NCBI RefSeq assembly: GCF_000039765.1
Contig: NC_004459.3
Coordinates: 60,001 to 92,000, forward strand
Origin: Vibrio vulnificus CMCP6
GTDB taxonomy: Bacteria > Pseudomonadota > Gammaproteobacteria > Enterobacterales > Vibrionaceae
DNA length: 32,000 nucleotides
Direction of reading: 5' to 3'
The position numbers were made by a program, and so were the translations under genes. Numbering within the stretch: the first letter of the stretch is position 1; the number at the start of each line of letters is the position of its first letter. Below are positions 624 to 18,383 of this stretch, piece by piece. The notes below the pieces were generated by a model. It worked only from the letters and a program-made list of their open reading frames with translations. It did no database searches and was not told the DNA's origin.

Positions 624-631
624 GAGGTTCT

Positions 632-1704: not shown

Positions 1705-4003
1705 ATCCCCGACGTTAGCCGTTAGCTGGCTTATGGCCGTGATCATGGCCGGTTTGTTGCTGAGCTATCTCTGGTTTGCGCAAGCAACGGCGCCAATCGA
1801 AACCGATATTTTAAAACTGCTGCCTAAAAATCAGCAAAATCCAGTAGCAGAACAAGCGTTTGAGCGCATTGCGGAGACGATGGGCAACAAGGTGATTTTT
1901 ATCGTATCGGGCGATGAGATCGATAAAGTTTACCAAGCAAGCGATGCGCTCACACAGCAGCTCACTCAAAGCGGTTATTTTGCCCAAGTGATGGGCCAAA
2001 TCCCTCAAGATACCCAGCAACAATGGGCGAAATATTACTTCGAACACCGTTTCCAATTTTTAACTGAGCAACAAAGAGAACGGCTCAGCCAACAACCGCA
2101 ACAGCAGGTGCAGCAGGTATTGCAAGCCCTCTACAACCCTTTTGCTGGTGTTACGGGGAGCGAGCTACAAAACGATCCTTTTCTGTTGTTTCGAGAGTAT
2201 TTGAACCAACTCTCGTCATTATCTGGCCAGTTCAAAGTTAAACATAACTATCTGAGTTTAGAAAAAGAGGGGCGCTTGTATGTGCTGATCAGCGCTGAGC
2301 TTCAAGACTCCCCATACAGCGTTGCGGCGCAGCGTTCAGTGTCAGAAATCTTACAGTGGGAAGCGCAAATTCATCAAACATTTGGCACTGAGATAGCCCA
2401 CACTGGGGTCTTGTTTTATGCTGATTTTGGTACCCAAAGCGCCAAGCAAGAAATCAGCACCATCGGTGTTGTTTCACTGCTGGGTATTGTGTTGCTCATC
2501 CTGCTGGTTTTTCGCAGTGTGACCCCATTGTTTCTGTCACTACTCTCGATTGGCATCGGACTTTTGATGGCACTCACCATCACCATTGCGATTTTTGGCA
2601 AAGTACATCTCTTTAGCTTGGTGTTTGGTGCCAGCTTAATCGGCGTCTCGATTGACTATGCTTTTCACTATCTGACCGACCGATTGGCGGCTGGTTCGCG
2701 TTGGAACGCCACAGCAGGGCTCAAGCATATCTTCACCGCAATCACCTTTGGCCTAGTGACAAGCTTAATTGGCTATTTGGGTCTCCTTATTGCCCCATTC
2801 CCGGGATTGCAACAATTGGCGCTGTTTTCCGCCACTGGCCTCATCGCCGCTTATCTCACTGTGGTGGCTTGGTATCCTTGGTTGGCCGTCAAACCCTCGG
2901 CAGATAGACCACTTCTCGGCTTGCCACTTTATCAACGCTGGCTAAGCGCGTGGCGAAAGCCCAAACTGGCGATTGGCTTGCCCGTGGCGATCGCCGTCAT
3001 CAGCGTCGCCGCCTTAACCCAAGTGCATTACGACGACGATATTCGCCAATTGCAGGCACTACCTGCCTCTCTCAAATCACAAGAAGCGCAGATCGCCCAA
3101 CTGACGGGGCTCCAATCCTCACAACAAATGTTGGTTGTCACCGCAGATAACGACTCCGCCTTGATGGAGCGCTTGGAACAGATCACCAAACTACTCGATG
3201 GTTGGCAGCAGCAAGGCGTGCTGGCGGGCTATCAGAGCCTGTCTCAATACCTGAGTTCAGAATCGCAGCAGCGGGCCGATTACCAACTCGTCGAAACCCT
3301 GTACCAAACTCAGGCGGCGCAACTGTCACGGACTCTTGGGTTACCCGCCACCGCAGAGCTCGACCAACCATTTGTGCCAATTTCGCTGCAAGACTACCTC
3401 AAGGCAGCCGTATCCGAACCTGTACGTTTCCTTGCTTTGGGCAAAGTGGACAACAAAACGGCCGCAGCCATTTTACTGAAAGATCTTCAGCAGCCCGAGG
3501 TCGTGATGACATTTGCACAGCAACACAGCGATGTCTCTTACCTCGATAAGGCACAAGAAATTTCGAGCTTGTTCAATCAGTATCGCGTCAAAGTAATGGA
3601 GTTACTGGTTGCAGCTATGGCGGTGATTTTTGCTTTATTGTGCTGGCGTTATGGCTTCCGACACAGCCTAACCATGATGCTGCCTTGTGTTATCGCCTGT
3701 ATCGCAGGACTGGCGGTTTCTGTTGTCACCGGTTCAAGTTTGAACTTGTTTAGCTTACTGGCACTGGTACTGGTTATTGGTATCGGCATTGATTACACCT
3801 TGTTCTTTGCGGAGCAACAAGGCAGCCATAGCACGCTCCTCGCCGTCACCTTATCGGCCATCACCACTTTATTGTCGTTTGGTTTATTGGCCTTGAGTGC
3901 CACGCATGCCATTCACAGCTTTGGGCTAACCGTGCTAAGCGGTATCTTTGTCGCTTGGTTGTTGGCACCGATGGCCATTCCCAATCAAGAGAAAAAACCA
4001 TGA
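1694..4003 (+). CDS. MMPL/RND-superfamily predicted exporter (ApeM-like)
   Basis: 769-aa ORF with two blocks of multiple hydrophobic helices separated by soluble domains, typical of MMPL-type exporters in APE clusters. The start is uncertain (TTG 1694 or ATG 1733). Confidence 0.8.
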   Translation: MRFKSPTLAVSWLMAVIMAGLLLSYLWFAQATAPIETDILKLLPKNQQNPVAEQAFERIAETMGNKVIFIVSGDEIDKVYQASDALTQQLTQSGYFAQVMGQIPQDTQQQWAKYYFEHRFQFLTEQQRERLSQQPQQQVQQVLQALYNPFAGVTGSELQNDPFLLFREYLNQLSSLSGQFKVKHNYLSLEKEGRLYVLISAELQDSPYSVAAQRSVSEILQWEAQIHQTFGTEIAHTGVLFYADFGTQSAKQEISTIGVVSLLGIVLLILLVFRSVTPLFLSLLSIGIGLLMALTITIAIFGKVHLFSLVFGASLIGVSIDYAFHYLTDRLAAGSRWNATAGLKHIFTAITFGLVTSLIGYLGLLIAPFPGLQQLALFSATGLIAAYLTVVAWYPWLAVKPSADRPLLGLPLYQRWLSAWRKPKLAIGLPVAIAVISVAALTQVHYDDDIRQLQALPASLKSQEAQIAQLTGLQSSQQMLVVTADNDSALMERLEQITKLLDGWQQQGVLAGYQSLSQYLSSESQQRADYQLVETLYQTQAAQLSRTLGLPATAELDQPFVPISLQDYLKAAVSEPVRFLALGKVDNKTAAAILLKDLQQPEVVMTFAQQHSDVSYLDKAQEISSLFNQYRVKVMELLVAAMAVIFALLCWRYGFRHSLTMMLPCVIACIAGLAVSVVTGSSLNLFSLLALVLVIGIGIDYTLFFAEQQGSHSTLLAVTLSAITTLLSFGLLALSATHAIHSFGLTVLSGIFVAWLLAPMAIPNQEKKP

Positions 4004-4608
4004 TAAGACAGCTTGTCCTCTGCCTGTTGTTGGCGCTCTCCATCACGGCATGCAGCATGCAACCTCGCATGCAAAGCACTCAAATTGAGATTGCCGATCA
4101 AACGTTTGTCACGCTCCCACAGCCGAGTGAGCTCGGCTTGGATGTGACGGCAAGCCAATTGATCACCGCGACATGGCAAACCGACACCGGCACACAAACT
4201 CAGCAATTGCCCGTCCAACTGCAAGTTGACCAAAACAAACTGGTTTTGGCTGGTTTTTCTTCGTGGGGAACACGTTTGTTGTCTCTCACCTACCAAGATA
4301 ATCATATTGAAACACAAGTATTGAATGGCTTAGAAAATACCCTACCTCAACCCGAGCAGGTACTTTTTAATCTGATGATCACGCTGTGGCCTGAACAAGC
4401 TTGGGAAGCGCCATTAAATCAGGTAAAGTGGCAACTCATTGACCGAGATAATCAGCGCACCATTATCGATAACCATGGCAACACGATCATTGTGATTGAT
4501 TACGAGCAAGGCCGAAGTTTTGCTGGCCCAATTCGTTTTCACTCGCTGTTAAACGACTATAAAATCGAGATTCAAACCCTGAATTATCAGTTATCGGACG
4601 CGAAATAG
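4000..4608 (+). CDS. small lipoprotein (DUF3261/ApeN-like)
   Basis: ATG at 4000 overlaps the upstream stop (ATGA). Lipobox LSITAC follows a hydrophobic leader (MIRQLVLCLLLALSITAC). The position matches the lipoprotein gene of APE clusters. Confidence 0.6.
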   Translation: MIRQLVLCLLLALSITACSMQPRMQSTQIEIADQTFVTLPQPSELGLDVTASQLITATWQTDTGTQTQQLPVQLQVDQNKLVLAGFSSWGTRLLSLTYQDNHIETQVLNGLENTLPQPEQVLFNLMITLWPEQAWEAPLNQVKWQLIDRDNQRTIIDNHGNTIIVIDYEQGRSFAGPIRFHSLLNDYKIEIQTLNYQLSDAK

Positions 4609-4617
4609 TAGAGCCAA

Positions 4618-5805
4618 ATGAATTCACACCTTTCTCAACCCATTTATATTCATGGCTGTGGCTTCCACTCAGCATTGGGGGCAACTGCAGAGCAGATCCA
4701 CCACGCACTGCAACATAATCACAGTGTGCAAATGCAGCAAGCCGTGGATCAACTCAACACTGGCACCGCCACCATCGTTGGTCGAGTGAGCGACACTTTG
4801 CCTGAGCTGCCATCATCGCTACGTGAATACGACTCAAGAAACAACCGTTTAGCCCTCTCAGCGCTGCAGCAAATTGAGCCCGCAATTCAAGAGGCCATTC
4901 GCCAATATGGCGCGAACCGCATCGCCGTGGTTATCGGCACCAGCACCTCCGGTATTGCCGACGGCGAAAACGCATTTGAGCAGAAGCTGTCACAAGAGCA
5001 CTTCCCGAGTGATTATCACTACCGCAAACAAGAGCTTGGCAACGTCAGCGACTTTATCGCCGATTACTTTCAGTTAACGGGACCTTGTTACGCGATTTCG
5101 ACGGCCTGTTCATCCAGCGGGCGTGTGTTCATTTCAGCAAAACGCCTCCTACTCAGTGGCATGGCCGATGCGGTGATCGTGGGGGGCGCAGATACACTCT
5201 GTCGCTTAACCTTAAATGGTTTTAATGGCTTAGAGGCCCTCTCAAATCAACATTGTCAGCCATTTAGTGCCGACAGAAGTGGCATTAATATTGGTGAAGG
5301 CGCCGCTTTTATGCTGCTCAGCAAAGCCCCTTCAGAGATCGCCCTACTCGGTTGTGGCGACAGCTCAGACGCACACCACATTTCCGCTCCACACCCTGAA
5401 GGTAATGGGGCTGAAGAGGCAATGGAAAAAGCGCTACTAGACGCCAATTTGAAACCAGAACAAATTGGCTACGTTAACGCCCATGGCACGGCAACTCCAC
5501 TCAACGACAGCATGGAAAGCAAAGCCATCTTTCGTCTTTTTGGCCAATCAGTGCCCGTCAGTTCAACCAAGCACCTAACAGGCCACACATTGGGCGCAGC
5601 CAGTGCCGTTGAAGCGGCCATTGCATGGCATATACTGAAATACAACTTAGATTTACCGCAACAAGGATGTCAGAACAAAGCGGATGACATAGAGGTCACG
5701 CTCGTCGAACAGCCAATGAAATTGGCACACAAGGCGATACTTAGCAACTCTTTCGCCTTTGGCGGAAATAACATCAGTCTGATATTTGGATATCCTCATG
5801 AATAA
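4618..5805 (+). CDS. beta-ketoacyl-ACP synthase (ApeO-like KS)
   Basis: Thiolase-fold KS with active-site Cys (AISTACSSS), His motifs (HHISAPHPEG, NAHGTATPLND) and a C-terminal NSFAFGGNN. Confidence 0.85.
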   Translation: MNSHLSQPIYIHGCGFHSALGATAEQIHHALQHNHSVQMQQAVDQLNTGTATIVGRVSDTLPELPSSLREYDSRNNRLALSALQQIEPAIQEAIRQYGANRIAVVIGTSTSGIADGENAFEQKLSQEHFPSDYHYRKQELGNVSDFIADYFQLTGPCYAISTACSSSGRVFISAKRLLLSGMADAVIVGGADTLCRLTLNGFNGLEALSNQHCQPFSADRSGINIGEGAAFMLLSKAPSEIALLGCGDSSDAHHISAPHPEGNGAEEAMEKALLDANLKPEQIGYVNAHGTATPLNDSMESKAIFRLFGQSVPVSSTKHLTGHTLGAASAVEAAIAWHILKYNLDLPQQGCQNKADDIEVTLVEQPMKLAHKAILSNSFAFGGNNISLIFGYPHE

Positions 5806-6262
5806 GCTGCCCAGCATTGAGACCTTGCTGCCCCACGACGCTCCGATGATCTTAATTGATCGGGCGATCAGCGTTGCGGAGGAGTCGATTCACTGTCAGG
5901 TAGACATTGGCCCTCACCTCGCCTTCTTCCATACTGAAACGCAAAGCGTACCGGGTTATGTGGGTATCGAGTTTATGGCGCAATCTATCGCGGCTTGGTC
6001 TGGCTATCATGCGCAGCAGAAAGGCCAAGAACCACCGATCGGTTTTCTCCTTGGTGGCAGGCGTTATCAAGCGATGTGCGATACCTTTCAGCTAGGGCAG
6101 ACACTCGATATCTACGCAGAGCAGTTGATGGAAGACAACGGCATGGCCGTGTTTACGGGTCGAATCGATATCTCAGGTGAGACAGTCGCAAAATGTCAGT
6201 TGAACGTTTATGTTCCAACGGAAGAAAAATTACAAGAAATGAAAATCAGGAGTCAAGAATGA
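5798..6262 (+). CDS. hotdog-fold 3-hydroxyacyl-ACP dehydratase (ApeP-like)
   Basis: ATG at 5798 overlaps the KS stop by 8 nt. FabA/FabZ-like hotdog signature (PHDAPMILIDR...GYVGIEFMAQS). The ORF-track TTG at 5786 is less likely. Confidence 0.7.
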   Translation: MNKLPSIETLLPHDAPMILIDRAISVAEESIHCQVDIGPHLAFFHTETQSVPGYVGIEFMAQSIAAWSGYHAQQKGQEPPIGFLLGGRRYQAMCDTFQLGQTLDIYAEQLMEDNGMAVFTGRIDISGETVAKCQLNVYVPTEEKLQEMKIRSQE

Positions 6263-6984
6263 CCCGTCAAGTGTTAGTCACAGGGGCCAGTAAAGGCATC
6301 GGCAAAGCCATCGCCATTCAATTAGCGAAAGATGGCTTTACCATCGTCGTTCACTACATGGGCGATAAGCAAGGTGCCGAGCAAACATTGGCCATGATTG
6401 AACAAAACGGTGGCAGTGGCCGTTTAATTCAGTTTGATATTAGCCATCGTCAACAATGTCGTGAGCGTATTGAAGCCGACATCGCAGAGCACGGCGCATA
6501 CTACGGCGTGGTCAATAACGCGGGTATCACCAAAGACACCGCTTTCCCAGCGATGACCGAAGCAGAATGGGATGGCGTAATTCACACCAACCTCGACAGT
6601 TTTTATAACGTCTTACACCCTTGCGTGATGCCGATGGTGCAAAAACGCAAAGGTGGACGCATTGTTACTTTGGCCTCCGTCTCCGGATTAATGGGCAATC
6701 GAGGTCAAACCAACTACGCCGCTGCCAAAGCGGGGGTGATTGGCGCAACCAAATCATTGGCTCTCGAGCTGGCGAAACGCAAAATCACCGTGAACTGTGT
6801 CGCCCCTGGGCTGATTGATACAGGCATGGTGGATGAGCATGTCAAAGAGCACGCTTTACCTCAAGTACCGCTACGCCGCATGGGTGAGCCGGAAGAAGTG
6901 GCTGGCTTAGTCAGTTATTTGATGTCTGACATTGCAGGTTATGTCACTCGCCAAGTGATTTCGGTTAATGGAGGCCTAATATGA
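6259..6984 (+). CDS. 3-oxoacyl-ACP reductase, SDR family (FabG/ApeQ-like)
   Basis: ATG at 6259 in an ATGA overlap with the upstream stop, with AGGAG upstream. Contains TGASKGIGKAIA (Rossmann fold), NNAGI and the YAAAKAG catalytic Y-x3-K. Confidence 0.9.
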   Translation: MTRQVLVTGASKGIGKAIAIQLAKDGFTIVVHYMGDKQGAEQTLAMIEQNGGSGRLIQFDISHRQQCRERIEADIAEHGAYYGVVNNAGITKDTAFPAMTEAEWDGVIHTNLDSFYNVLHPCVMPMVQKRKGGRIVTLASVSGLMGNRGQTNYAAAKAGVIGATKSLALELAKRKITVNCVAPGLIDTGMVDEHVKEHALPQVPLRRMGEPEEVAGLVSYLMSDIAGYVTRQVISVNGGLI

Positions 6985-8210
6985 ATCGCAGAGTTGTTGT
7001 CACTGGTATGTCTGGTGTCACTGCATTTGGCAATGATTGGCAAAGTGTCGAGCCCAAATTACGCGCGCTAGAAAATGCCACTCAGTTTATGGAAAATTAC
7101 CAACAGTACGAAGGGTTGAACACAAAACTTGCCGCTCCCGTGGTCGATTTTGAGCTCCCTTCGCATTACAAACGCAAGCAAGTTCGCGGTATGGGCCGCG
7201 TCTCCAAATTAGCCACCGTGGCGACTGAAAACGCGCTACGCCAAGCAGGCTTAATTGGTGAAGACGTACTAACGAATGGCCAAACTGGCATTGCTTACGG
7301 TTCATCAACTGGCTCAACTGACGCCATAGGCGCATTTGGCGTGATGCTGAACGACAAAACCACCAAAGCGATCACCGCGACGACCTACGTTCAAATGATG
7401 CCGCACACCACCGCCGTCAATGTCGGGCTCTTTTTTGGCCTGCGTGGCCGCGTTATTCCGACCAGCAGCGCATGTACATCTGGCAGCCAAGCTATTGGTT
7501 ACGCCTATGAAGCGATCAAACACGGCTATCAAACCGTTATGGTGGCAGGGGGAGCAGAAGAGCTTTGCCCAACCGAATCAGCGGTATTCGATACCTTGTT
7601 TGCGACCAGCTTGAAAAATGATCAGCCGAAAACAACGCCAAGCCCTTACGACAAAGATCGTGATGGCCTCGTGATCGGTGAAGGCGCTGGCACGCTGGTG
7701 CTAGAAGAGTACGAACACGCCAAAGCACGCGGTGCGACAATCTACGCTGAGATCATCGGCTTTGCCAGCAACTGTGACGCGGCACATGTGACTCAGCCAC
7801 AGATGGAAACCATGCAGATCTGTATGGAAATGGCCCTGCAAAACGCGGATCTACATCCAAAACACATTGGCTATGTTTCTGCGCATGGCACTGCGACAGA
7901 CCGTGGTGACATTGCCGAAAGTAACGCGACGCAAAATGCCATTGGCAAGGTGCCAATCAGTTCATTAAAGAGCTATTTTGGCCACACATTGGGCGCATGC
8001 GGTGCCATCGAGGCATGGTTGAGTATTGAGATGATGAACAGTGGCTGGTTTAGCCCAACCCTGAATCTCACTAACCTAGACCCAGATTGTGGTGATCTGG
8101 ATTACATTGCTGGTGCTGGCCGCGAGATGGATATTGATTACATGATGAGCAATAACTTTGCGTTTGGCGGCATCAATACTTCCCTCATCTTTAAACGCGT
8201 TCGCGATTAG
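6981..8210 (+). CDS. beta-ketoacyl-ACP synthase II-like (FabF/ApeR-like KS)
   Basis: ATGA overlap with the reductase. Contains SSACTSGS (Cys), AAHVTQPQ and SAHGTATDRGD (His/His), and NNFAFGGINTSL. Confidence 0.9.
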   Translation: MNRRVVVTGMSGVTAFGNDWQSVEPKLRALENATQFMENYQQYEGLNTKLAAPVVDFELPSHYKRKQVRGMGRVSKLATVATENALRQAGLIGEDVLTNGQTGIAYGSSTGSTDAIGAFGVMLNDKTTKAITATTYVQMMPHTTAVNVGLFFGLRGRVIPTSSACTSGSQAIGYAYEAIKHGYQTVMVAGGAEELCPTESAVFDTLFATSLKNDQPKTTPSPYDKDRDGLVIGEGAGTLVLEEYEHAKARGATIYAEIIGFASNCDAAHVTQPQMETMQICMEMALQNADLHPKHIGYVSAHGTATDRGDIAESNATQNAIGKVPISSLKSYFGHTLGACGAIEAWLSIEMMNSGWFSPTLNLTNLDPDCGDLDYIAGAGREMDIDYMMSNNFAFGGINTSLIFKRVRD

Positions 8211-8217
8211 CGTACTC

Positions 8218-8243
8218 AACGGCTGCTTTAGGCAGCCGTTTTT
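8218..8243 (+). terminator. intrinsic terminator ending the APE operon
   Basis: AACGGCTGC (8218-8226) pairs with GCAGCCGTT (8232-8240) across a 5-nt loop and runs into TTTTT, 8 nt after the stop codon. Confidence 0.6.
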
Positions 8244-8330
8244 GATTCCGTTCCCCTCAAAAATCACTGCTGTTTTTTCACACAAACTGTTCATTCTGTC
8301 GCCTAGCTTTTATTGTTGATAAACAAAGTG

Positions 8331-8368: not shown

Positions 8369-8445
8369 CGGACTGTAGCGCAGCTTGGTAGCGCACCGTC
8401 ATGGGGTGTCGGGGGTCGGAGGTTCAAATCCTCTCAGTCCGACCA
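8369..8445 (+). tRNA. tRNA-Pro (anticodon GGG)
   Basis: 77 nt folding as a cloverleaf: acceptor CGGACTG/CAGTCCG, D arm GCGC..GCGC, anticodon loop ATGGGGT (GGG at 34-36, G37), T arm GGAGG TTCAAAT CCTCT, encoded CCA. From memory, identical to E. coli proL outside positions in the acceptor stem and one D-loop base. Confidence 0.95.
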
Positions 8446-8550: not shown

Positions 8551-9717
8551 TTACCCCCAAATCGCCAGCTCAACAGCCGGTACCTGAACCCACTTCTCAT
8601 GGCCCTCTTTGTATATCTTGGTACTGCGAGAATCCGTGTGTGCAGCGCGTGCTTGAGCGTCGTGGCCAGCCTTATCGTACAAGTGAATACTCAGCCCTCG
8701 AATCTCGTGATACGTTGGCCGACAGTCTGCAGGCACACCTTTTTTGACCTTCACCTGGTCCCGTAACTTGGAAAAAAAGCGGCTCAGATATTTTCGGTTC
8801 ACCTGAGTGAGGTGATCACAATACTGGCTCACATCATTGCTGCGTTTTTCCGGCAGACGATGCACCACGTAAGGTGAATCAATATTGTCCTTGCTCGCTT
8901 CAATAATATTCAGCAGTGACCTTGTCACAGGGATAACAACTCGGCTTGCTTCCTTCTTTTTTACCTTACGGCGATGAATGCGCAGATACCCAAACACCTC
9001 AACACCATCTTCCAGAACTGGAGCATCGAGCATGGTGATATCCTCGTATTTCATCGCACATATCTCATTAACCGCGTGCGTTGTCTCGAGAGAGAGGTCC
9101 ATTGCAACCCTCATCCCACTGAGGAGCGATGCCCAAATCGATTTATATTCAGAGAGCGTTAAGTCGCGGCGTTGCTTCTCCTCCTTCGGCCTTACGTTTT
9201 TGCGTTTGGCCGGATTGTCGACCAATCACCGATTCATCGATGCGTAATCAAACACCTTCGACATAAACGCTATCCAGCGGTTGAAGACATTATTTGATTT
9301 ACCTGCAGCAACGGCATCGAGCACCAGGTTCACATCGTCCAAAGTGATGGACATACCCACTCTGTCACCAAGCAAGGTATCCAGCTTTTCTAAACGGCTA
9401 TCAAACATGGCCAACGTCTCTTTTGTCGGCTTTTCATCGGCCGCATATCGCGCCGATACTCGAGCAAAGAACGTAGAAAGCCGTTCAACAGACTTGCGAT
9501 GATGCGGTTTAATGAGGTCGAGATTGACCGGATGAGCGATTTCAGGGTCAACCCGATAAGTGGCGTTGTATCTTCTGGCCAGAGCGATTGCTCGGCTCTT
9601 GTCGTGGCCGAGAGATTTACAGCTGTTATCGATACGCCGAAAGACGTACCCTTTCTTACCTTTAAAATAGAGACCTTCAGGGAGGTCTCTATACTTACTA
9701 CTTCTTGGACGTGGCAC
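8551..9717 (-). pseudogene. int: lambda-type tyrosine integrase interrupted by an in-frame TGA (9226-9228)
   Basis: The N-terminus (PRPRSSKYRDLPEGLYF) parallels the lambda Int arm-binding domain. The C-terminus has HEIRGL (H-x-x-R) and AHTDSRSTKIY (His..Tyr). ORFs 9226-9723 and 8551-9225 are in the same frame, separated only by TGA (..ASMNR*LVDNPAKRK..). The likely start is GTG at 9717, 5 nt after GAGG. Confidence 0.7.
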
Positions 9718-9734
9718 GGTCACCTCAGTACATA

Positions 9735-9929
9735 TTAGTGAGAAAGCAGGTCATCCAAGAAAGGATCACCGCTCGATTTCTTCTCTTTTTCCAAATCAAC
9801 GTAATATGAACGTCCAATTCTTTTCCCTGGCAACGTGCCTAAATCGATTTCCCTACGACAGATACGCACATCTGGCGCACTGCCCTCAGTAAACCGGAGT
9901 TTTCGCCAAAGGCTGAGTTTCACCAACAT
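9735..9929 (-). CDS. xis: excisionase (lambda Xis-like)
   Basis: 64-aa ORF immediately upstream of int with an SD (GTGAGGA). The motif LSLWRK..RICRREIDLGTLPGKRIGRSYYVDL resembles the lambda Xis winged-helix pattern (recalled, not aligned). Confidence 0.65.
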   Translation of the reverse strand: MLVKLSLWRKLRFTEGSAPDVRICRREIDLGTLPGKRIGRSYYVDLEKEKKSSGDPFLDDLLSH

Positions 9930-10060
9930 AAAAGATCCTCACCCACAGACGTTTGAAAAAACCTCTGAACCTATGGAATGAAATTTACAGACTTTTTTGA
10001 ATTCAGTAACTTGCATTCAAATTGTTTATTTCTTCGCCCTCAAGTTGCCGCAAGAGGGCT

Positions 10061-10099
10061 TTAAAAACCTATGGGATGATCACTGGATTCCCATAGGTT
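10061..10099 (-). terminator. intrinsic terminator at the end of the early operon, upstream of xis-int
   Basis: Perfect 11-bp stem AACCTATGGGA (10066-10076) / TCCCATAGGTT (10089-10099). In minus-strand orientation it is followed by TTTTTAAA (10065-10058). Confidence 0.6.
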
Positions 10100-10129
10100 T
10101 AGTTGGAGCCATGAGCATAGTTTTGGCGC

Positions 10130-10645
10130 CTATGCCGCTTTCGAGTTAACCTCCGAGCCGATATTCTGAAGCACTACGGCCACCCAACTGAGCTCTGTTT
10201 TCAAACGATCACACTCTCGAGTAATGGCGAGAACGGACAGTTGTTCCTGTTGAGCCATTTTCTCTGCGAGCTGCTCTTGAGCACTGTCCAATGCTTGAGT
10301 AAGTTGAACTTCCAACTGCTCAAAATAGTACGCGTTAGCTAGGAACAAATGGGCCAAGGTTTCATCCTGGACACGTGAGATGGAAGGCTCAACATCCAAC
10401 GCGTCCGTCAGTTTCTGTTTACCCATTTCTGTTAGCTGATAGAGCTTCTTATCGGGCTTTCCAGATTGCAGAACCACTTCCAGAGACAAAAAACCGAATG
10501 TTTCAAGTTTAGCCAGCTCACGATAAATTTGCTGATGCGACGCTTTCCAACCTTTTGCTGGTAAACGTTTTGCTAAGTCATAACCAGTCATTTGCTGCTG
10601 GCCAACTTCAGCCATCAAGACAAGTTGCAGATTTGATATGTGCAT
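10130..10645 (-). CDS. PadR-family transcriptional regulator, AphA-like
   Basis: N-terminal winged HTH with TGYDLAKRL..WKASHQQIYRELAKLE..GKPDKKLYQLTEMG, then a helical C-terminal domain. The pattern closely parallels my recollection of Vibrio AphA (GYDITKEF..FWKASHQQVYRELNKM..GKPDRKVYSIT..RDEF). SD AGAGGG. Confidence 0.8.
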   Translation of the reverse strand: MHISNLQLVLMAEVGQQQMTGYDLAKRLPAKGWKASHQQIYRELAKLETFGFLSLEVVLQSGKPDKKLYQLTEMGKQKLTDALDVEPSISRVQDETLAHLFLANAYYFEQLEVQLTQALDSAQEQLAEKMAQQEQLSVLAITRECDRLKTELSWVAVVLQNIGSEVNSKAA

Positions 10646-11277: not shown

Positions 11278-11506
11278 GTCGCTTGTCCTCCATCATCGGA
11301 ACCTTATACTTTCCTGCGTACTCGGCTTTAAACTTCGCCCCTTCGAGAACAAGCTGAGCATTGTTGACGATCTGATTAGATACAGCAGTGATGGCTTTTG
11401 AACGAGCGACTTCCATCTCCAGTTCCGGACCTTTTAAGGATTCATCACCCAAACGTTCAATTTGAGCAAACAAATGGTCATTCAAATCCGTTAATTGATT
11501 CTTCAT
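11270..11506 (-). CDS. hypothetical phage protein (helical, 78 aa)
   Basis: SD GAAGGTAA. Its 3' end overlaps the HNH gene start by 8 nt (translational coupling). Protein-like composition. Confidence 0.6.
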   Translation of the reverse strand: MKNQLTDLNDHLFAQIERLGDESLKGPELEMEVARSKAITAVSNQIVNNAQLVLEGAKFKAEYAGKYKVPMMEDKRHA

Positions 11507-11539
11507 GGTCTTTACCTTCTACGGTCTCTACAACTTGTA

Positions 11540-11791
11540 CTAACAATGATGATTAAGCACTCGAACAGTGACATCGAGGTGCAGAGAGGAAATGCCTAGC
11601 TTTTCAGCCAAGCGCTTACGATTGCCGGCATCGAGATTGATGGCGCTGGCCAACGTCTCGAACTTATTCTCATGGCTACTCATATCGTGCTTTTTACCGT
11701 TGATATAAGGTTGATCAAGTCCTGCCTCTTCATAGACTTCAACGATCATTTTCGCGACATGGTTTAGGGGTTTTTGCTTAGATTTAGGCAT
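11540..11791 (-). CDS. hypothetical phage protein (83 aa, possible C-terminal HTH)
   Basis: Same-strand operon context, 8-nt overlap with the upstream gene, segment NRKRLAEKLGISSLHL. Confidence 0.55.
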   Translation of the reverse strand: MPKSKQKPLNHVAKMIVEVYEEAGLDQPYINGKKHDMSSHENKFETLASAINLDAGNRKRLAEKLGISSLHLDVTVRVLNHHC

Positions 11792-12038
11792 CTTTCTTTA
11801 CCTCTTGGCTGAGTTGTTCAAACTCTTCTTCGTTACAAATCAGGAAGCCACCAAAGCCAGTTTCTCTATGGAGTACTCCCTCGGCGATAATACGTCCTTC
11901 CAAAACCTCACATGCATGCTCAACAGCATCATTGAAGCTAGGAAAAGACCCAAGCTCGAGATTAATGACTTCGTTCGTTTTAGAACTTACCGAAACCGCA
12001 CCATTTTCATTTAAGTAAGCTGCAATGTAGTTATTCAA
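11784..12038 (-). CDS. hypothetical phage protein
   Basis: The ORF is open to 12149, but that would overlap the DUF3850-like gene by 119 nt. An in-frame TTG at 12038 lies 4 nt after a strong AAGGAGGA and overlaps the upstream stop (TTGAATAA). The start is uncertain. Confidence 0.45.
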   Translation of the reverse strand: MNNYIAAYLNENGAVSVSSKTNEVINLELGSFPSFNDAVEHACEVLEGRIIAEGVLHRETGFGGFLICNEEEFEQLSQEVKKDA

Positions 12039-12848: not shown

Positions 12849-15608
12849 TTACTGGTTAGTTTCTTTCTCACGAACATCGTCTGGAATGGTTGGGAACAGG
12901 CCGAACTCGCGCAGGTTCTCAACGCCCAGGGCGACAAAATTGGCAACGCGTTTGCCGTTAATCGATTTCTCGTGGCCATCTTTCAGCACCACTTTGGCCT
13001 CCTTGAGCTGCTTCTTCAGAATGCGATCGCTCTTCACAGGCAAGCTGTCAAACTTGGCTTTCAATGCAGGGCTTTGGCTTATGTGCTGCATGATGTGGCT
13101 GGTACGAACCAGCAAGCACAGCTCGCCCTCAATCCAATCGAAAGAGAACGGGTGGCGGAAATGCCCAGCATCCATCTCGCCCAGGATAAGCTCCATAATC
13201 CACACCCACGGCTCGCGCTCTGCTTCTGTTTCGCGAATGTGCGCATTCATCTCTGTCACCAAATCTTGAATAAAGTGACCATAGTTACTTGCAACGCCCG
13301 TGAATTCGCACAGCAAACGCCACGTCAGCATCAAACAGGCATAGTTATCACGCATACGGTTCGCGCCGTTGTCGTCAGGCTTAGCCATACAACGCTTCGA
13401 AAGGTAATCAACACACTCGCGATAAGCGCGTTTCATTTGTGGCCGAGTGTAAGAGGTCAGGTACAGGATCCAGTTTTTAACAGGGAAACGAGGCAACTCA
13501 TCGGGAATCATGTCGCCCTTGCGTCCGGTCAAGTCAGAACGCACCAGCTTGCCAAGCAACGATTGCACCGGCACGTCTTCACCCGCCAACAGCACTGGCG
13601 CAATACTCAAGAACTCCGTCATGTCCGTACCACGGCGAGTGATGGTGTATTGGTAGCTCTCTTGCAGCATGGCCACCGCTTTATCAATTACGCCTTGACC
13701 CTGAGCGGAGAGCTCTTCCCAACCGACCGGGTGAGAGGTGTGCGATATCGATGTCAGCAAACGGAACTCGGTTTTCAAGCTCTGGCCAGAAAACATGGTG
13801 AATGCCAACGTGCGCTCGAGCGACTTAACCAGCGTCGATTTACCCGCGCCTTTCCCTGCATTCAGCATGTAATGAGGCCAAAAGCCTAAGTAAGTTTTGA
13901 TGTGCGCACCCAAGCCCCAAACCAACAGCATCAAAGCCGCGTTGTTTTTGAATGTGGCGTGATACGCTTCAATCACACGCAATCCCTGCTCTGGAGAGCC
14001 AGATGGAAACTGCAAATTGTGGTATGGGCACTGCTGCGTTGGGTCAGTAAAGAACGAGTCCGGTCCTTCGTTTAAAATCGCTTGGCCATTGTGCCAGGCA
14101 AGCCCAACGAAATTGACCGCGTTGCGCTCGCCAAGGTGGGTGGCGCGCTCGAGTATCGAGATCATTCGGGTGAACTTGCTCGGGTTGAAAATCCCGCCGC
14201 CGACCCGACGCCAAACATCGATGTTGTAAAGCTGCTCACGTTTGAGCACAAAACGGGTTAGCTCCGTCGGTGAATCGGGCGTTTGAATCGTGGCTGAGTA
14301 TACTTTCGTCGGCTGCAAATCGGGTTCGCCTGTCATGGCTGAATTCGCCGATGAAATCGTCACTTTCGATAAGCCAGCAATGCGGAACGAGCACACATCC
14401 TGTGGGATCTTCTGCTCACCTTCTTCATTGGTCACGATTTTCAAATAACTGGTAAAGTCGGGCTTCACTCGAAACAGCCAGTACAGTGATTGATCATGAT
14501 GTGGCAGCGGCAAGCGCTTAAACTGGGAGTTCTCAAACTCCCCTTCTTGCCCTGCAATAAGCCAAGGCTCAAAGTAATCCAGCGCATACTTGGTCATTTG
14601 CGTACCGTGTTTACGTAGATAATCGTTAAGGTCGTTGATCTCGTCCCATTTGCCACCGGATTGATCAACAAGGTAACAAGGAATGTTGAGCGCCGTGCAT
14701 CGCTCGTGCACGATCCACGCGGCCTCTGGCCCTGGTCTGTGGCCTTTTCTTGGCCCTTCCGCAATAGGCTGGTCATTGTCAAAACAACAAACCACACGCT
14801 TGCCAGATAGGAATCGCCAGTCGATTTCGTCGACCGCAAGACCGCGAGTCGCAATCGCCGTCACTGGTACTTTCCCTTTCCCCTTAGGATCGTAAGCAGC
14901 AATCGCCGAGATAGCATTAATCGCAGATTCAACCACAATCACGGTTTTGGCACGCCTAAGCGCCATTTTGTCAGGGATGTACGGGAAGCCGCGTTTTTCC
15001 CCCATCGCCTTGGTTTTGTTATCACCATTTAGCGCAGGATCAAAAAATCGGAAATCTATCCCCACCACTTCATTGGTAAATAGGCATCGGCTCGGGAACG
15101 TCACGGCAGGGCCACCGTAACCCAACTCACCAGGGTTTTTGCTTGGGCTTGTCCAATCGCTGTAACCAAATGCACCGCGCTTTTGCAGCATATCCACCAC
15201 ATCGGCCGGAATGCCGCGCACATCAATCAGATAGGCTCTTGCATCACCCGCAACCGCTAACTGCTTCTCAGCAACCCACGCAATTTGGCTTTGCTGCTTA
15301 GGCTGCTGAGGGGCTAGCTCATCGGTAGGAATATTGAACTCTTCGTGCAGCCACTTCATCGCTTCACTGGCATCCATCGCCTGACCGCAATAAATCACAA
15401 GGTCGATACAACTGCCTTTTTCACCGGAAGCATGATCTTTCCACATCATGTATCCGGCTTTACCTGCCTCGAAAATGCTCACGCTTGGGTGCTTGTCAGG
15501 GCGGTTGGGTGCGCGGTAATTGCCGGATGGATCGGGTCTTTCCATACCTAAACGGTCAGCCAACTCGTGTAAATTAATGATCTGTTTTAGTTGTTCTGCG
15601 GACGCCAT
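12849..15608 (-). CDS. replication primase-helicase (degenerate zinc-ribbon N-domain + Toprim + P-loop NTPase)
   Basis: Toprim signature (VIVVESAINAIS ... CCFDNDQP) and Walker A (NAGKGAGKSTLV). ATG at 15608 follows GGAGG by 9 nt. The TTG at 15659 in the ORF track is less likely. Confidence 0.85.
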   Translation of the reverse strand: MASAEQLKQIINLHELADRLGMERPDPSGNYRAPNRPDKHPSVSIFEAGKAGYMMWKDHASGEKGSCIDLVIYCGQAMDASEAMKWLHEEFNIPTDELAPQQPKQQSQIAWVAEKQLAVAGDARAYLIDVRGIPADVVDMLQKRGAFGYSDWTSPSKNPGELGYGGPAVTFPSRCLFTNEVVGIDFRFFDPALNGDNKTKAMGEKRGFPYIPDKMALRRAKTVIVVESAINAISAIAAYDPKGKGKVPVTAIATRGLAVDEIDWRFLSGKRVVCCFDNDQPIAEGPRKGHRPGPEAAWIVHERCTALNIPCYLVDQSGGKWDEINDLNDYLRKHGTQMTKYALDYFEPWLIAGQEGEFENSQFKRLPLPHHDQSLYWLFRVKPDFTSYLKIVTNEEGEQKIPQDVCSFRIAGLSKVTISSANSAMTGEPDLQPTKVYSATIQTPDSPTELTRFVLKREQLYNIDVWRRVGGGIFNPSKFTRMISILERATHLGERNAVNFVGLAWHNGQAILNEGPDSFFTDPTQQCPYHNLQFPSGSPEQGLRVIEAYHATFKNNAALMLLVWGLGAHIKTYLGFWPHYMLNAGKGAGKSTLVKSLERTLAFTMFSGQSLKTEFRLLTSISHTSHPVGWEELSAQGQGVIDKAVAMLQESYQYTITRRGTDMTEFLSIAPVLLAGEDVPVQSLLGKLVRSDLTGRKGDMIPDELPRFPVKNWILYLTSYTRPQMKRAYRECVDYLSKRCMAKPDDNGANRMRDNYACLMLTWRLLCEFTGVASNYGHFIQDLVTEMNAHIRETEAEREPWVWIMELILGEMDAGHFRHPFSFDWIEGELCLLVRTSHIMQHISQSPALKAKFDSLPVKSDRILKKQLKEAKVVLKDGHEKSINGKRVANFVALGVENLREFGLFPTIPDDVREKETNQ

Positions 15609-15879: not shown

Positions 15880-16162
15880 ACAACCGCCTTAAACAAGCAG
15901 ATGCCAACCAAAGCTCAACGCTCAAATGGCAACTGTGCGTCAGCTGCTGCTGTTCAACCTGCTCTTTGGGGAGATTGTCCAGCTCTTTGCTGTCGAGTTT
16001 GATGTGTCCAGCCTCAAGCCACTGGTTGAACACAGCATCTTGCTCATCAATAAACGCATGACGGTTGATAAAGCCCTGCTGGCGCACCATTTGTTGCTCC
16101 AAGCGGAACAAGCAGGCACGCTCCGGTGCAGAAAGCTTGGTGGCCAAAACAGGGTTAGGCAT
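15863..16162 (-). CDS. hypothetical phage protein (99 aa)
   Basis: SD GAGGAAG, 8-nt overlap with the upstream gene, operon context. Confidence 0.5.
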   Translation of the reverse strand: MPNPVLATKLSAPERACLFRLEQQMVRQQGFINRHAFIDEQDAVFNQWLEAGHIKLDSKELDNLPKEQVEQQQLTHSCHLSVELWLASACLRRLYACDL

Positions 16163-16476: not shown

Positions 16477-16692
16477 CTAGTAGAACTGCGTTTGAAAAAT
16501 AGAAACTCTGCGGTCTTTACTCACCAACATCGGCGCCTCGCCAACCAATTTCACAATCACGTTGGCGCCATTGTCCTTACACCACTCGACAATCGACGCG
16601 TTATGACGATTCCCCTCAAAACTGACCACATGGCCACGGCAAATGTGCTCGGCCGAGATATGCTGCAGACGCGGCTGAGTTAGCGAAAACAT
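16477..16692 (-). CDS. hypothetical phage protein (71 aa)
   Basis: SD GGGAGG 7 nt upstream of the ATG. Overlaps the recombinase stop by 13 nt. Confidence 0.5.
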   Translation of the reverse strand: MFSLTQPRLQHISAEHICRGHVVSFEGNRHNASIVEWCKDNGANVIVKLVGEAPMLVSKDRRVSIFQTQFY

Positions 16693-17384
16693 GTGCTGGC
16701 CTCCCGCATAGCTGACGACAATGATTCACGATCCGGCGTGGTATACACCGAGGTAGTCGCAATGTTGGAATGACCAAGCACCGCCTGAACACGGCGAAGC
16801 GCATCCGGTGATGTGGTGCGTTCCAAATAGCGCTTAGCCCAACTGTGGCGCAGCCAGTGTGGTGTCCCTTCCGGCACATTGGCCAAACGGCACCAAGTCG
16901 AAAAGCGAGATTGAAACGATCGGCGACTCATCGCCTGACGGTTACGGCTGAGAAAAAGCGGACGCTCTAAACGAGGGGTATCCCACTCAATGCCTTGGCT
17001 CATTTCGACATGAATTTTCAGCAACTGCTTGAGCGCATGAATGGCGGATTTGTTGAGAGCAATCGGGTGTTTTTTCTGGTTCTTGGCGTTTTCACTGCGG
17101 TAAATCAGATAGCCTTCTTCAAGGCTTTGCTCCGCTTCACCTACCGTTAAACCGAGCATTGGCAGGTTAAAACGCTTGGCTTTATCGGCATCGGGGCCAG
17201 CCAGCACACCGAGGCGAACGGCGGTTTCGCGCATCAGCAGCATCCAGTAATAATCACGCTGTGCATAAATGCCGTAAGTCTGCTTAACCGTGTTAAACAA
17301 CTGCTTCTCTTCCTGCTCAGTAAAGTAGTGAAGAAAGAACTGAGTCGATGATTGGTTTTGAGAGTGTGAAATTAGGGTTGTCAT
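16680..17384 (-). CDS. tyrosine recombinase, catalytic domain only (Xer/phage-integrase family, 234 aa)
   Basis: Carries the full catalytic set: Arg in RETAVRLG, HWLRHSWA (H-x-x-R), LGHSNIATTSVYT (His..Tyr). Only about 40 aa precede the catalytic domain, so there is no SAM-like core-binding domain. SD AGGAGG. Confidence 0.8.
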   Translation of the reverse strand: MTTLISHSQNQSSTQFFLHYFTEQEEKQLFNTVKQTYGIYAQRDYYWMLLMRETAVRLGVLAGPDADKAKRFNLPMLGLTVGEAEQSLEEGYLIYRSENAKNQKKHPIALNKSAIHALKQLLKIHVEMSQGIEWDTPRLERPLFLSRNRQAMSRRSFQSRFSTWCRLANVPEGTPHWLRHSWAKRYLERTTSPDALRRVQAVLGHSNIATTSVYTTPDRESLSSAMREASTCFR

Positions 17385-17413: not shown

Positions 17414-17893
17414 TTAACCGTTAACCAATGCGCGCAAACGCTCGAGCAGCTCCAGTGCCGCGGCAAACGTTTCTTGCAGTTCGCGTTCGATACGATCGAA
17501 CTCATGGCGCTCGATGTCCCCATCTTCGAGGGCATCAGCAATGGCGCGGTTCACATCGCCGATTTCGGCGTGCCAACGGCTGTAACAGTTGAGCAGCTCC
17601 ATGTCGGAAATAGCTCGGTAGTCACCAAGAAAGTAGATGGAATGGTTCAGCTCGGAAGCAATGGAGCGGAGAATTTGCACATCCCCCGTGAATTGCATCA
17701 GCTTAATAGCATCAAACAAACCCAGTTTATGGCTGGTTTGATTGGGGTTGATCTCGTTTAGCAACACACCAGGTCTTTTATTTAGGTGCTGCTCAACCGT
17801 TTCGTTATGGCCATAATCTTTTAGCGTTTGGTACAAAGCATGTACCACCTGCGGAAAAACGCAGGTAGGTGATGGGACGATAGCAGTATGCAT
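17414..17893 (-). CDS. phage regulatory protein, 186 CII-like (CP76 family)
   Basis: VLLNEINPNQTSHKLGLFDAIKLMQFTGDVQILRSIASEL parallels 186 CII (TLRNKLNPEQPHQFTPPELWLLTDLTEDSTLVDGFLAQI, recalled). SD GAGGAG. The position after the Cro/Apl analogue fits. Confidence 0.7.
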   Translation of the reverse strand: MHTAIVPSPTCVFPQVVHALYQTLKDYGHNETVEQHLNKRPGVLLNEINPNQTSHKLGLFDAIKLMQFTGDVQILRSIASELNHSIYFLGDYRAISDMELLNCYSRWHAEIGDVNRAIADALEDGDIERHEFDRIERELQETFAAALELLERLRALVNG

Positions 17894-17918
17894 CGTAAGC
17901 TCCTCAAAAATTGGTACG

Positions 17919-17947
17919 TTTCCATTTTTTGAAGCCTGCGCTACAAT
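17919..17947 (+). promoter_or_regulatory. candidate sigma70 promoter firing antisense to the early operon
   Basis: TTTCCA (17919-17924), exact 17-nt spacer, TACAAT (17942-17947). Confidence 0.4.
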
Positions 17948-17953
17948 CTACCT

Positions 17954-18075
17954 CAGGATGAAATGGTGTTGGAGCCGTGAGCATAGAGGTTGCCGCCTCG
18001 CTCGTTATCCTAGTGGTTGACTGTGAAATTCAGACTTCTACGGCCCTTACCGATTGCCGTTGGTAAGGGTTTTTT
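17954..18075 (+). ncRNA. candidate ~120-nt antisense small RNA (cis-antisense to the cII leader)
   Basis: Bounded by the promoter above and the intrinsic terminator at 18044-18075. No plus-strand gene upstream could otherwise use that terminator. The only ORF inside is 20 codons with no spaced SD. The ends are predicted, not measured. Confidence 0.35.
18044..18075 (+). terminator. intrinsic terminator, plus-strand specific
   Basis: CCCTTACC (18044-18051) pairs with GGTAAGGG (18062-18069) and is followed by T6 (18070-18075). In the minus orientation the hairpin is followed by CCGTAG, so there is no U-tract. Confidence 0.65.
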
Positions 18076-18084
18076 AATACCTGT

Positions 18085-18273
18085 TCACATCGCCTCCTTT
18101 AATGGTGGCAATCCCAACTCCTCCTCTTTCTCCGCTACTGCTTTTTTCAGAAGAATCCGGGTCATTTGTGCCGGTTTACGTTCATCTAACGTTGCTAAAC
18201 GCTCGACTCTGCGTCTTAAATCTAAATCACGCGTAGCAACCAGATCCGCATTTGGATTTTTTAAATTAGCCAC
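18085..18273 (-). CDS. ribbon-helix-helix (Arc/CopG-like) protein, first early gene; Cro/Apl/Cox analogue by position
   Basis: 62 aa, GTG start 6 nt after TAGGAG. RRRVERLATLDERKPAQMTRILLKKAV fits the helix-turn-helix part of an RHH fold. Divergent from the repressor gene. Confidence 0.6.
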   Translation of the reverse strand: MANLKNPNADLVATRDLDLRRRVERLATLDERKPAQMTRILLKKAVAEKEEELGLPPLKEAM

Positions 18274-18325
18274 TTGTTACTCCTAATATGTTAAGCTCAA
18301 TTTTTGAAGCTAACTGAAAACAAAA

Positions 18326-18383
18326 GTTCCAGATATTTAACTTTGTTAACGTTCGATGTAGATACTAGATCCGTTTCTGGAAC
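18326..18383. promoter_or_regulatory. candidate operator set in the divergent switch region
   Basis: Inverted 8-mers GTTCCAGA (18326-18333) and TCTGGAAC (18376-18383) flank a 13-bp palindrome TTAACTTTGTTAA (18337-18349). All lie within the 135-bp spacer between the RHH and repressor starts. Confidence 0.3.

Follow-up and report, generated by a model that had tools for sequence, protein, structure and literature searches.

A short core of a predicted antisense RNA and its co-varying second copy at the early-operon end of a Vibrio vulnificus prophage

The stretch of Vibrio vulnificus CMCP6 DNA analysed here (contig NC_004459.3, positions 60,001 to 92,000; hereafter the window, 32,000 nucleotides (nt) in full, within which all positions are counted) carries host genes at 1-8300, a tRNA-Pro(GGG) gene at 8369-8445 and, integrated beside this tRNA gene, a prophage with P2-type tail genes. 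The early operon of the prophage lies on the minus strand and comprises, in order, a 62-amino-acid (62-aa) gene, a 190-nt spacer, cII, a gene for a 234-aa integrase-family protein, several small open reading frames (ORFs), and genes for a 936-aa Toprim primase, an exonuclease, a DUF3850 protein, an HNH protein and a PadR-family regulator. Beyond the operon come the hairpins T and X, a 64-aa ORF and a tyrosine integrase gene (int). Our subject is an 18-nt sequence, the core, which occurs twice: once within a predicted small RNA (sRNA) that is antisense to the spacer upstream of cII, and once at the end of the operon, ahead of T. We found here that the second, distal copy is retained in related prophages and changes together with the first, and comparison of these sequences points to its being a site at which the sRNA pairs with the early mRNA. 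The features on which this argument depends are as follows.

17919..17947, plus strand: predicted sRNA promoter (TTTCCA, 17-nt spacer, TACAAT), the sole sigma-70-like site in 17800-18400
17954..18075, plus strand: predicted antisense sRNA of about 120 nt (~122 nt), with helices P1, P1a, P2 and P3 and terminator P4
17969..17986, plus strand: the core (18 nt) as carried by the sRNA, within its 5′ domain
18042..18075, plus strand: predicted sRNA terminator P4 with its U run, the region's only terminator-like site; conserved loop AUUGCCGU at 18053-18061
17414..17893, minus strand: cII (186/CP76 family; Pfam PF06892 at 4e-25, phrog_101), the first gene downstream of the cis target of the sRNA
10130..10645, minus strand: last early gene, PadR family, with its stop codon at 10130-10132
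10115..10135, minus strand: hairpin hp1 (GCAUAG/CUAUGC), taking in the stop codon of PadR as well as the anti-core 5′ end
10103..10120, minus strand: distal copy, where the early mRNA reads CUAUGCUCAUGGCUCCAA, the anti-core
10060..10100, minus strand: predicted intrinsic terminator T of the early operon (12-base-pair (bp) stem, 12-nt loop, U5; hairpin at 10065-10100)
10036..10059, minus strand: hairpin X, beyond T, with the minus-sense loop GCGGCAA, complementary to the P4 loop AUUGCCGU

The two copies of the core, TTGGAGCCATGAGCATAG at 10103-10120 and TTGGAGCCGTGAGCATAG at 17969-17986, lie 7.8 kilobases (kb) apart, are identical at 17 of 18 positions and both read on the plus strand, that is, they are direct repeats. 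This bears out the coordinates, orientation and identity given in a preliminary description of this DNA, which had also placed the distal copy correctly after the stop of an AphA-like (PadR-family) ORF and beside a terminator, the stem of which we measure as 12 bp. An exhaustive search of the whole window for the 18-mer and its complement, on both strands and with up to three mismatches, returned just these two sites (0.04 expected by chance), and two or more matches were seen in 0 of 100 dinucleotide-preserving shuffles. The repeat is not due to chance within the window. The pair is short, and is missing from the top families of a generic repeat finder. The preliminary description had named a palindromic protein-binding site as the finding that would overturn its proposal; the 18-mer shows no dyad symmetry and no clear internal repeat. 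Separately, a tyrosine-recombinase core site serving the second integrase-family gene was considered for the repeat and rejected, there being no dyad and the centre differing between the copies.

The sRNA itself is antisense to the spacer between the cro-like first early gene and cII, and ends 61 nt before the cII start codon. To compare it across prophages, relatives were collected with the CII protein (from viral contigs, genomes and metagenomes), by exact-protein look-up and by DNA patterns, and were labelled with L-numbers. In these relatives the -10 element GCTACAAT of the predicted promoter is conserved and the -35 element is weak and variable. The window sRNA has a minimum free energy of -45.3 kcal/mol (z = -3.7), and an alignment of 16 distinct homologues from related prophages yields a consensus in which P1 is a closing helix, P1a a small hairpin, P2 a hairpin in two parts, P3 a short helix and P4 the terminator. 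Pairing is kept in 95.3% of cells in this alignment, with compensatory changes in 7 pairs; the covariation score was reached by 0 of 500 column shuffles, and slid registers are only 34-47% paired. About one-sixth of the cells are G:U pairs, which would be A:C mismatches on the opposite strand, and the structure is therefore assigned to a plus-strand RNA. The P4 stem covaries beneath a loop that is invariant except in L019, where it reads AUUGCAGU, and P1a and P2 are invariant in the alignment, so that covariation neither supports nor contradicts them. In prophages with a 98% identical CII, a 1-nt indel throws a 20-codon ORF inside the sRNA out of frame, which argues that the sRNA is non-coding. 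An RNA on the opposite strand to its target, with its own promoter and terminator and a conserved fold, is thus predicted here, as would be expected of a cis-encoded antisense sRNA. A covariance model built from the alignment re-finds the window sRNA at 139 bits. No Rfam family reached its gathering threshold (at E up to 10 there were only weak, unrelated matches far below gathering scores), and a literature search found no description of this RNA. In the predicted fold, core positions 1-5 form the P1a loop, 6-10 the P1a 3′ strand, 11-14 the outer P2 stem and 15-17 an internal loop.

A second copy of the core was present in every Vibrio or Photobacterium locus that reaches far enough (about 27 loci with about 20 distinct distal versions), in the same orientation and 5.9-7.9 kb from the sRNA; those loci without one end before that distance. 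It always follows the last early gene, be this PadR, Rha-like or HNH, and the 64-aa ORF and int always come after it, an additional gene intervening in some cases. The placement first remarked in the window, between the early operon and the small-ORF/int module, therefore holds in all Vibrio and Photobacterium relatives, and, because the preceding gene varies, the distal element appears to travel with the operon end and integration module and not with a given upstream gene. Four variants of the sRNA core were found (TTGG..ATAG, TTGG..ACAG, TTTG.. and TGTG..), each mirrored in the distal copy of its own locus:

sRNA core TTGGAGCCGTGAGCATAG, distal copy with the same flanks: most loci
sRNA core ..GCACAG, distal copy ..GCACAG: L019
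sRNA core TTTGAGCC.., distal copy TTTGAGCC..: L020, L021, L027, L037 and others
sRNA core TGTGAGCC.., distal copy TGTGAGCC..: L023, L028, L029, L039

Absence or free divergence of the repeat in relatives had been set out beforehand as the outcome that would tell against a function, and we found the opposite. Scoring of the intermolecular helix between the sRNA and the minus-sense distal RNA over 9 distinct pairs gave pairing in 93.1% of cells and three compensated pairs (U:A to G:C, G:C to U:A and U:A to C:G); neither the pairing nor the covariation score was reached by any of 500 shuffles, and slid registers were 25-42% paired. The copies differ only at core positions 9-11, plus one uncompensated edge position in L180 (position 1). 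At 9-11 the sRNA always has GUG and the distal copy ATG, ATA, GTA, GAA or TAA. Most of these differences are G-to-A on the plus strand, and so C-to-U in the minus-strand mRNA. This bias favours a plus-strand sRNA meeting a minus-strand mRNA, as had been proposed, because the G:U wobble is then kept and the opposite sense would give A:C. The compensated positions 2, 3 and 16 are unpaired in the predicted sRNA fold, and the relaxed positions 9-11 lie in its stems; since the strict positions are exposed and the relaxed ones buried, the pattern favours RNA-RNA pairing. Antisense systems that nucleate at loops, such as those of R1 and ColE1, show such strict-loop, relaxed-stem behaviour. A scan of viral contigs with the 15-mer AAGGATGAAATGGTG was swamped by chance matches, four of the new matches from a scan with distal-type sequences proved to be chance hits in coding DNA, and an int-based search recovered the same phage family only.

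In the early mRNA the distal element reads hp1, CAAAA, the anti-core (with its 3′ half unpaired), a gap of 0-5 nt, T with its U run, and X. In the window T starts 2 nt beyond the core, and the 0-5 nt spacing is kept in almost all relatives, even where the sequence of the hairpin differs. T is a minus-strand structure, in that some relatives' G:U pairs would be A:C on the plus strand, and its stem carries compensatory changes in L167, L177 and L178. L023 and L028 have an unrelated hairpin in its place, and L179 (V. spartinae) a single long hairpin with an X-type loop and no adjacent U run. From this comparison a terminator appears to be usual, and not obligatory, at the distal element, which shares with 3′ untranslated region (3′UTR)-derived sRNAs, L179 excepted, the order of a seed and then an intrinsic terminator and its U tail, located where the mRNA ends. 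Similarly, hp1 appears not to be essential, being absent from several relatives (L028, L174); in L019 one of its pairs is a U:G wobble, which pairs on the minus strand only. The CAAAA 5′ of the anti-core (10121-10125 in the window, TTTTG on the plus strand) is invariant in 12 aligned distal elements; later loci keep TTTT, with A as the fifth base in L176, L179 and L180. Hairpin X has at least eight different stems over a constant loop across relatives, and its loop changes only in L019 (to GCUGCAA), together with the P4 loop (AUUGCAGU). That is a single event, and the X-loop 7-mer is not rare in the window (11 matches against 7.3 expected), so that we regard a contact between the X and P4 loops as no more than a lead. 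Lying beyond T, X is present only in RNA that has passed T. Upstream of hp1 we found neither a promoter-like site nor conserved sequence, the sequence there following the preceding gene. A degenerate second sRNA gene at the distal site was considered and ruled out, since the sRNA covariance model gives no match there. As an observation on L179 alone (16078-16140, plus strand), the GCUCCAA of its anti-core lies in the 7-nt loop of a small hairpin (UUUCG/CGAAA) and can pair without a mismatch to the P1a loop region of the sRNA; the hairpin that follows has a CGGCAA loop without an adjacent U run.

The similarities that had been described on either side of the core fared less well than the core itself. 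The downstream block, TTGGCGCCT against TTGCCGCCT, is present after gaps of 2 and 3 nt respectively, but its co-variation in relatives is not strict, and only TTG plus a few bases are retained. The letters of the upstream module, ACCTATGGGATGA against ACCTCAGGATGAA, are also there, but comparison with relatives does not bear the match out: the sRNA 5′ end varies (ACCT, ACCC, ACGG, ACCG, ACAA) with no matching change in the distal hairpin, which in some relatives is swapped for unrelated ones, and on these grounds we reject the module. A looser third copy, placed at 9969-9981, turns out to be a genuine repeat of a 9-mer from the terminator arms, AACCTATGG, that is unconnected with the sRNA. This 9-mer has three matches against 0.46 expected, comprising both arms of T and one site near the small ORF:

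9968-9976, plus strand: AACCTATGG
10066-10074, plus strand: AACCTATGG
10091-10099, minus strand: AACCTATGG

The first of these lies about 40 nt upstream of the small-ORF start codon, within a tandem CCAYAGGTT-CAYAGGTT that is kept upstream of the small ORF even where the terminator sequence differs (L023/L028). The tandem may be a protein-binding site controlling the small ORF and int. Finally, strict co-variation of the P2 loop with the hp1 loop was not found: L179 matches and L180 does not.

More distant prophages of Endozoicomonas, with CII 45-50% identical, have an sRNA-like unit at the same place with the related 5′ sequence GAAAGUGU[G/U]CGAGCUAUC. Here too the seed region recurs, at a different place: in L024 and L032 it is repeated 116 nt upstream in the early mRNA (18/20, the sole central difference being C-to-U in the mRNA), and in L031 it is repeated 109 nt upstream (11/11). 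The G/U difference between the two Endozoicomonas seeds is matched in each lineage's own second copy. Possession of two sites thus appears, from these alignments, to be a recurrent trait of the sRNA family, with the location of the second site not fixed. Because that location varies, the second site would serve the sRNA circuit generally, the position before int being one solution, adopted in the Vibrio clade. L025 is the only distant locus that the covariance model re-found (E = 0.0034). As a side observation, its sRNA homologue at 9797-9808 has a 12-nt complement at 14566-14577, over the ribosome-binding site of an early-operon ORF starting at 14582, which may be a different kind of trans target or a chance match (~0.26 expected).

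The predicted energetics of the interaction are in keeping with a pairing site. The seed duplex with 10091-10130 (minus sense) is worth -39.1 kcal/mol, against a mean of -15.1 ± 3.6 kcal/mol and a best of -33.2 among 4246 other windows, and the costs of opening the two partners are 14.5 and 15.2 kcal/mol. Relative to the separate monomers the predicted dimer gains 23.7 kcal/mol in stability, and in it T and X stay folded.

On this evidence we consider it likely that 10103-10120 is a selected RNA-RNA pairing site for the plus-strand sRNA. Being read from the spacer immediately upstream of cII (the cis target), the sRNA has full complementarity to the early mRNA there, and the 3′ end of the same mRNA carries an imperfect copy of that target, of about 30 nt, 7.8 kb downstream and before the small-ORF/int module. 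Our best overall explanation, to which we would give about an even chance, is that this second copy is a trans pairing site, maintained by selection, with a role in processing or decay of the transcript; processing or decay as the outcome of pairing, taken by itself, is put forward tentatively, at somewhat below even. Pairing would begin where the exposed P1a loop GUUGGA and the P2 AUA internal loop of the sRNA meet the unstructured mRNA CAUGGCUCCAAC between hp1 and T, and the duplex would then spread to about 18-22 bp. In transcripts that have gone past T, a second contact might form between the P4 loop AUUGCCGU and the X loop GCGGCAA. We envisage that pairing acts after transcription, and negatively: the duplex beside the 3′ hairpin would mark the operon 3′ end and read-through RNA for RNase III-type processing and decay, such that one RNA would keep in check the cII/replication part of the operon and, with it, any expression of the recombination genes by read-through. 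Action after transcription is favoured because T is not predicted to be disturbed by pairing, no conserved anti-terminator was found, X lies beyond T and one relative is without a canonical terminator. The earlier proposal that the RNA acts in trans on termination, processing or stability just upstream of int is upheld insofar as the second site is selected as a pairing site would be, but an effect on termination is not indicated, T staying folded.

Several observations weigh against this interpretation. Compensation is seen at just three positions, in three or four lineages, and rows that are identical in the alignment reflect shared ancestry. The distal match is never perfect, and in L180 the pairing is down to 7 + 7 bp. 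When whole-sRNA duplexes are computed, the distal site comes top but is not an outlier (-53.6 against -50.4 for the next), so that this ranking is not discriminating. Co-variation of the identity type cannot, on its own, distinguish pairing between opposite strands from a shared factor acting on both copies. The CAAAA motif lacks complementarity to the sRNA, and pairing leaves its conservation unexplained. The link between X and P4 comes down to one event and a common 7-mer. Lastly, in four distant loci in which the sRNA position is present (L025, L040, L041 and L181) we found no convincing second copy.

The main rival is a decoy role, which we judge unlikely. The distal mRNA end (hp1, anti-core, T and U tail), or a fragment cut from it, would titrate the sRNA as a sponge once transcription has reached the end of the 7.8-kb operon, and so relieve antisense repression at cII. 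Such a role would suit the centre of the match, which is never perfect, and the anti-core, which is more exposed at the distal site than in the mirror-image cis target; and the Endozoicomonas second copy, which is nowhere near int, would likewise serve the sRNA circuit and not int specifically. The 3′ module also resembles a 3′UTR-derived, Hfq-type sRNA, with a hairpin, a single-stranded seed and a terminator 0-5 nt after it, but no conserved 5′ end, promoter or processing site was found for it, the sequence upstream of hp1 varying with the preceding gene, and L179 is without a canonical terminator and U tail. Moreover X, being beyond T, would be missing from a decoy terminated at T, yet it is conserved. 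Akin to this is the idea that the operon end mimics the cis target, each early transcript neutralising, or being hit by, a second sRNA molecule, which we hold to be a minority possibility of similar weight.

The close spacing of anti-core and hairpin, kept at 0-5 nt in almost all relatives even with a different hairpin sequence, could also be read as a sign of control over termination, in which the sRNA would bind the nascent transcript before T, alter polymerase stopping, by attenuation or antitermination as in plasmids pT181 and pIP501 or phage P4, and gate read-through to the small ORF and int. In L024, likewise, about 25 nt separate the local second copy from a hairpin that, in the early sense, has U4 after it. 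We nonetheless regard this as quite improbable. T keeps its full fold in the predicted dimer, there is no canonical terminator to control in L179, and X can be reached only after T has been passed. The only candidate anti-terminator, formed between the 5′ arms of hp1 and T, amounts to 4-7 bp and is absent, by inspection, in L023, L028 and L167; it was rejected as too short and not conserved.

A further alternative, which we also think quite improbable, has one phage-specific protein binding both copies, either as RNA (in the manner of nutL/nutR boxB) or as DNA, with differences in its specificity between phages driving the co-variation. The copies are indeed direct repeats within one transcript, one of them sits between the cro-like gene and cII, the position of lambda nutR, and both are accompanied by hairpins with constant loops over variable stems (anti-P4, anti-P2 and X); the invariant CAAAA, left unexplained by pairing, would also find a place. 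Against this, a plus-strand RNA over one copy is independently backed by a promoter, a terminator and strand-specific G:U pairs, and strictness follows the unpaired nucleotides of the sRNA, for which a protein site gives no reason. The 18-mer is without a dyad or clear internal repeat, and no N-like or Q-like protein is found among the annotated early genes, though several small ORFs are unannotated and no dedicated search was made. That the distal copy is an inert relic, left over when the sRNA gene was partly duplicated, or has arisen by chance can be largely set aside: similarity over about 30 nt (the core plus TTG..) and the 1-nt offset would fit an old duplication, but the 15 non-central positions equal those of the locus's own sRNA copy in all versions but L180 (position 1) while flanks, loops and neighbouring genes diverge or are swapped, and chance is excluded within the window.

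The remaining early and integration genes of the prophage are listed here, with the integrase frame interrupted in the window:

18085..18273, minus strand: first early gene, 62 aa, in the cro/apl position
16680-17384, minus strand: short tyrosine-recombinase-family gene, 234 aa, directly after cII
9735..9929, minus strand: 64-aa ORF, putative excisionase by position alone, directly upstream of int
8551..9723, minus strand: tyrosine integrase, a single 391-codon frame with an in-frame stop at 9226-9228

The first early gene had no family match; judged by eye, its product looks ribbon-helix-helix-like. A CI-like helix-turn-helix (HTH) repressor is divergent from the early operon, with a probable start at 18410. 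The short recombinase-family gene after cII is retained in all relatives, the distant Endozoicomonas ones included (205-233 aa). The 64-aa ORF adjoins int in all relatives, and its earlier label 'xis' can be sustained by position only: it has no match in Pfam, PHROGs or the PDB, BLASTP gave no alignment with a lambda Xis sequence, and a single-sequence AlphaFold model is of low confidence (predicted local distance difference test score, pLDDT, 63). In relatives int is intact (386-395 aa), including L173 with the same layout as the window; the window prophage may be unable to excise, its integrase being broken by the stop codon. Inspection by eye for a CII-binding motif common to the sRNA promoter and the int-proximal region turned up nothing conserved.

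Relatives of the window CII come, by source names, from V. cholerae, V. cincinnatiensis, V. spartinae, Photobacterium galatheae and Endozoicomonas. The exact CII protein of the window is listed in 90 blocks of the protein look-up index, and assembly GCA_015820925.1 shares the window's layout. In the collection of sequenced phages the nearest CII is only about 30% identical and belongs to Burkholderia phages, and BLASTN of both sites against that collection gave no match. The prophages also differ in content. An AntA or Bro-N anti-repressor-like gene is inserted between the first early gene and the sRNA in some relatives, and despite this insertion the sRNA remains directly upstream of cII:

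AntA/Bro-N insertion: L170, L172, L174, L175, L180 (9291-9815); L177 (9300-9815)

The early operon of L181, an Endozoicomonas relative, encodes a CsrA-family RNA-binding protein (11501-11815). A variable cargo slot lies at 19472-21113, between tail gene D and the CI-like gene; in relatives (L170-L180) it holds SIR2, KAP NTPase, Pycsar (AGS_C + PycTM) or putative AbiC genes, and in the window an HTH protein (RmrA-like HTH by PADLOC) and a 443-aa ORF. The latter had no match in Pfam, PHROGs or PADLOC and may be an undescribed defence gene. On the tRNA side, two host ketoacyl-synthase genes share stretches that are 72-83% identical (5422-5495 with 7824-7897, and 5581-5615 with 7980-8014); the two are paralogues, and their cluster looks to be of the aryl-polyene type by the Pfam labels of the same genes in L170.

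If two-site control of the kind proposed here is real, one RNA would link the decision point between lysis and lysogeny (cII) with the excision and integration genes. On the less probable reading in which the operon end mimics the cis target, it would also act as a timer of transcription length, since the second site appears only after the full 7.8 kb has been transcribed: once the replication operon was complete, cII would be freed from its antisense RNA, or read-through into the recombination genes would be permitted. The co-varying loop nucleotides would in that case set RNA-based specificity classes among similar prophages. The prophage family is common in Vibrio (V. cholerae included, by source names) and Photobacterium and has no studied member, and its natural sequence variants provide a ready set of compensatory mutants. 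More generally, whether the copies change in step among relatives can serve to validate or dismiss the short and trivial-looking repeats of a single genome.

Antisense RNAs beside cII have long been a familiar theme, and P1, P4 and N15 provide examples of immunity RNAs with several targets. The c4 immunity RNA of P1 and P7 uses short recognition sequences with several sites (a/b in the icd-ant mRNA), RNA and sites co-changing between phages, and the present system is like it in that a predicted small RNA of a phage finds matches at two places in the operon it would regulate, RNA and sites changing together. It differs in that c4 and its targets are on the same strand and c4 is cut from that transcript, whereas here an opposite-strand RNA with its own promoter and terminator is predicted and one target is a perfect cis complement; the sRNA also had no match to the Rfam C4 family. 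The P4 CI RNA with seqA and seqC, to which the CA RNA of N15 is related, is an immunity factor that pairs with two separated sites of the replication-operon transcript, a likeness noted in the preliminary description together with one to lambda sib. Both analogies hold as functional resemblances, but the defining features of those systems are not seen here. The P4 sites are complementary to seqB on the same strand and the RNA, as in the P1 c4 system, is processed from the target transcript, whereas the direct repeats found here require an RNA from the opposite strand; P4 acts by premature termination, of which there is no sign here; and the sites are 7.8 kb apart as against a few hundred bases in P4. 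With lambda sib the likeness is one of function only, an RNA duplex near the int region possibly deciding the fate of early transcripts that carry int. The sib element is a cis hairpin downstream of int, past attP, and its effect depends on topology (prophage or phage); here the element precedes the small ORF and int, lies in both states on one and the same side of the attachment site flanked by tRNA-Pro, and would form an intermolecular duplex. Lambda OOP (and the CII-dependent paQ) is likewise a short antisense RNA by cII, with its own promoter and terminator, that opposes the early transcript, but OOP overlaps the cII 3′ end at a single site, and here the RNA covers the interval between the cro-like gene and cII and is matched by a second site that co-varies with it.

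Outside phages, the closest parallels are with plasmid antisense RNAs (R1 CopA/CopT, ColE1 RNA I/II and pT181/pIP501), which share with the present RNA recognition through exposed loops, single-base changes that are matched in the partner, stem nucleotides that are less critical and constant loops over variable stems. These plasmid systems have a single cis target, and the attenuation of pT181 and pIP501 needs alternative pre-emptor and terminator folds; no mutually exclusive folds switched by the antisense RNA were found here, T being folded in the dimer and L179 lacking a canonical terminator. Sponges and 3′UTR-derived sRNAs (SroC, the 3′ETS of leuZ, and the prophage-encoded AgvB and AsxR) resemble the distal element in that a segment with an imperfect match to an sRNA seed ends in a terminator, the difference being that here the sponge and the primary target of the sRNA would be parts of the same mRNA. 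We know of no description of a cis-antisense sRNA whose second, evolutionarily maintained site lies kilobases from the first within one operon, bordering the integration module. Taken on its sequence features, the arrangement would represent a new variant of phage antisense-RNA control, outside c4, CI, OOP and sib, in an unstudied and widespread prophage family.

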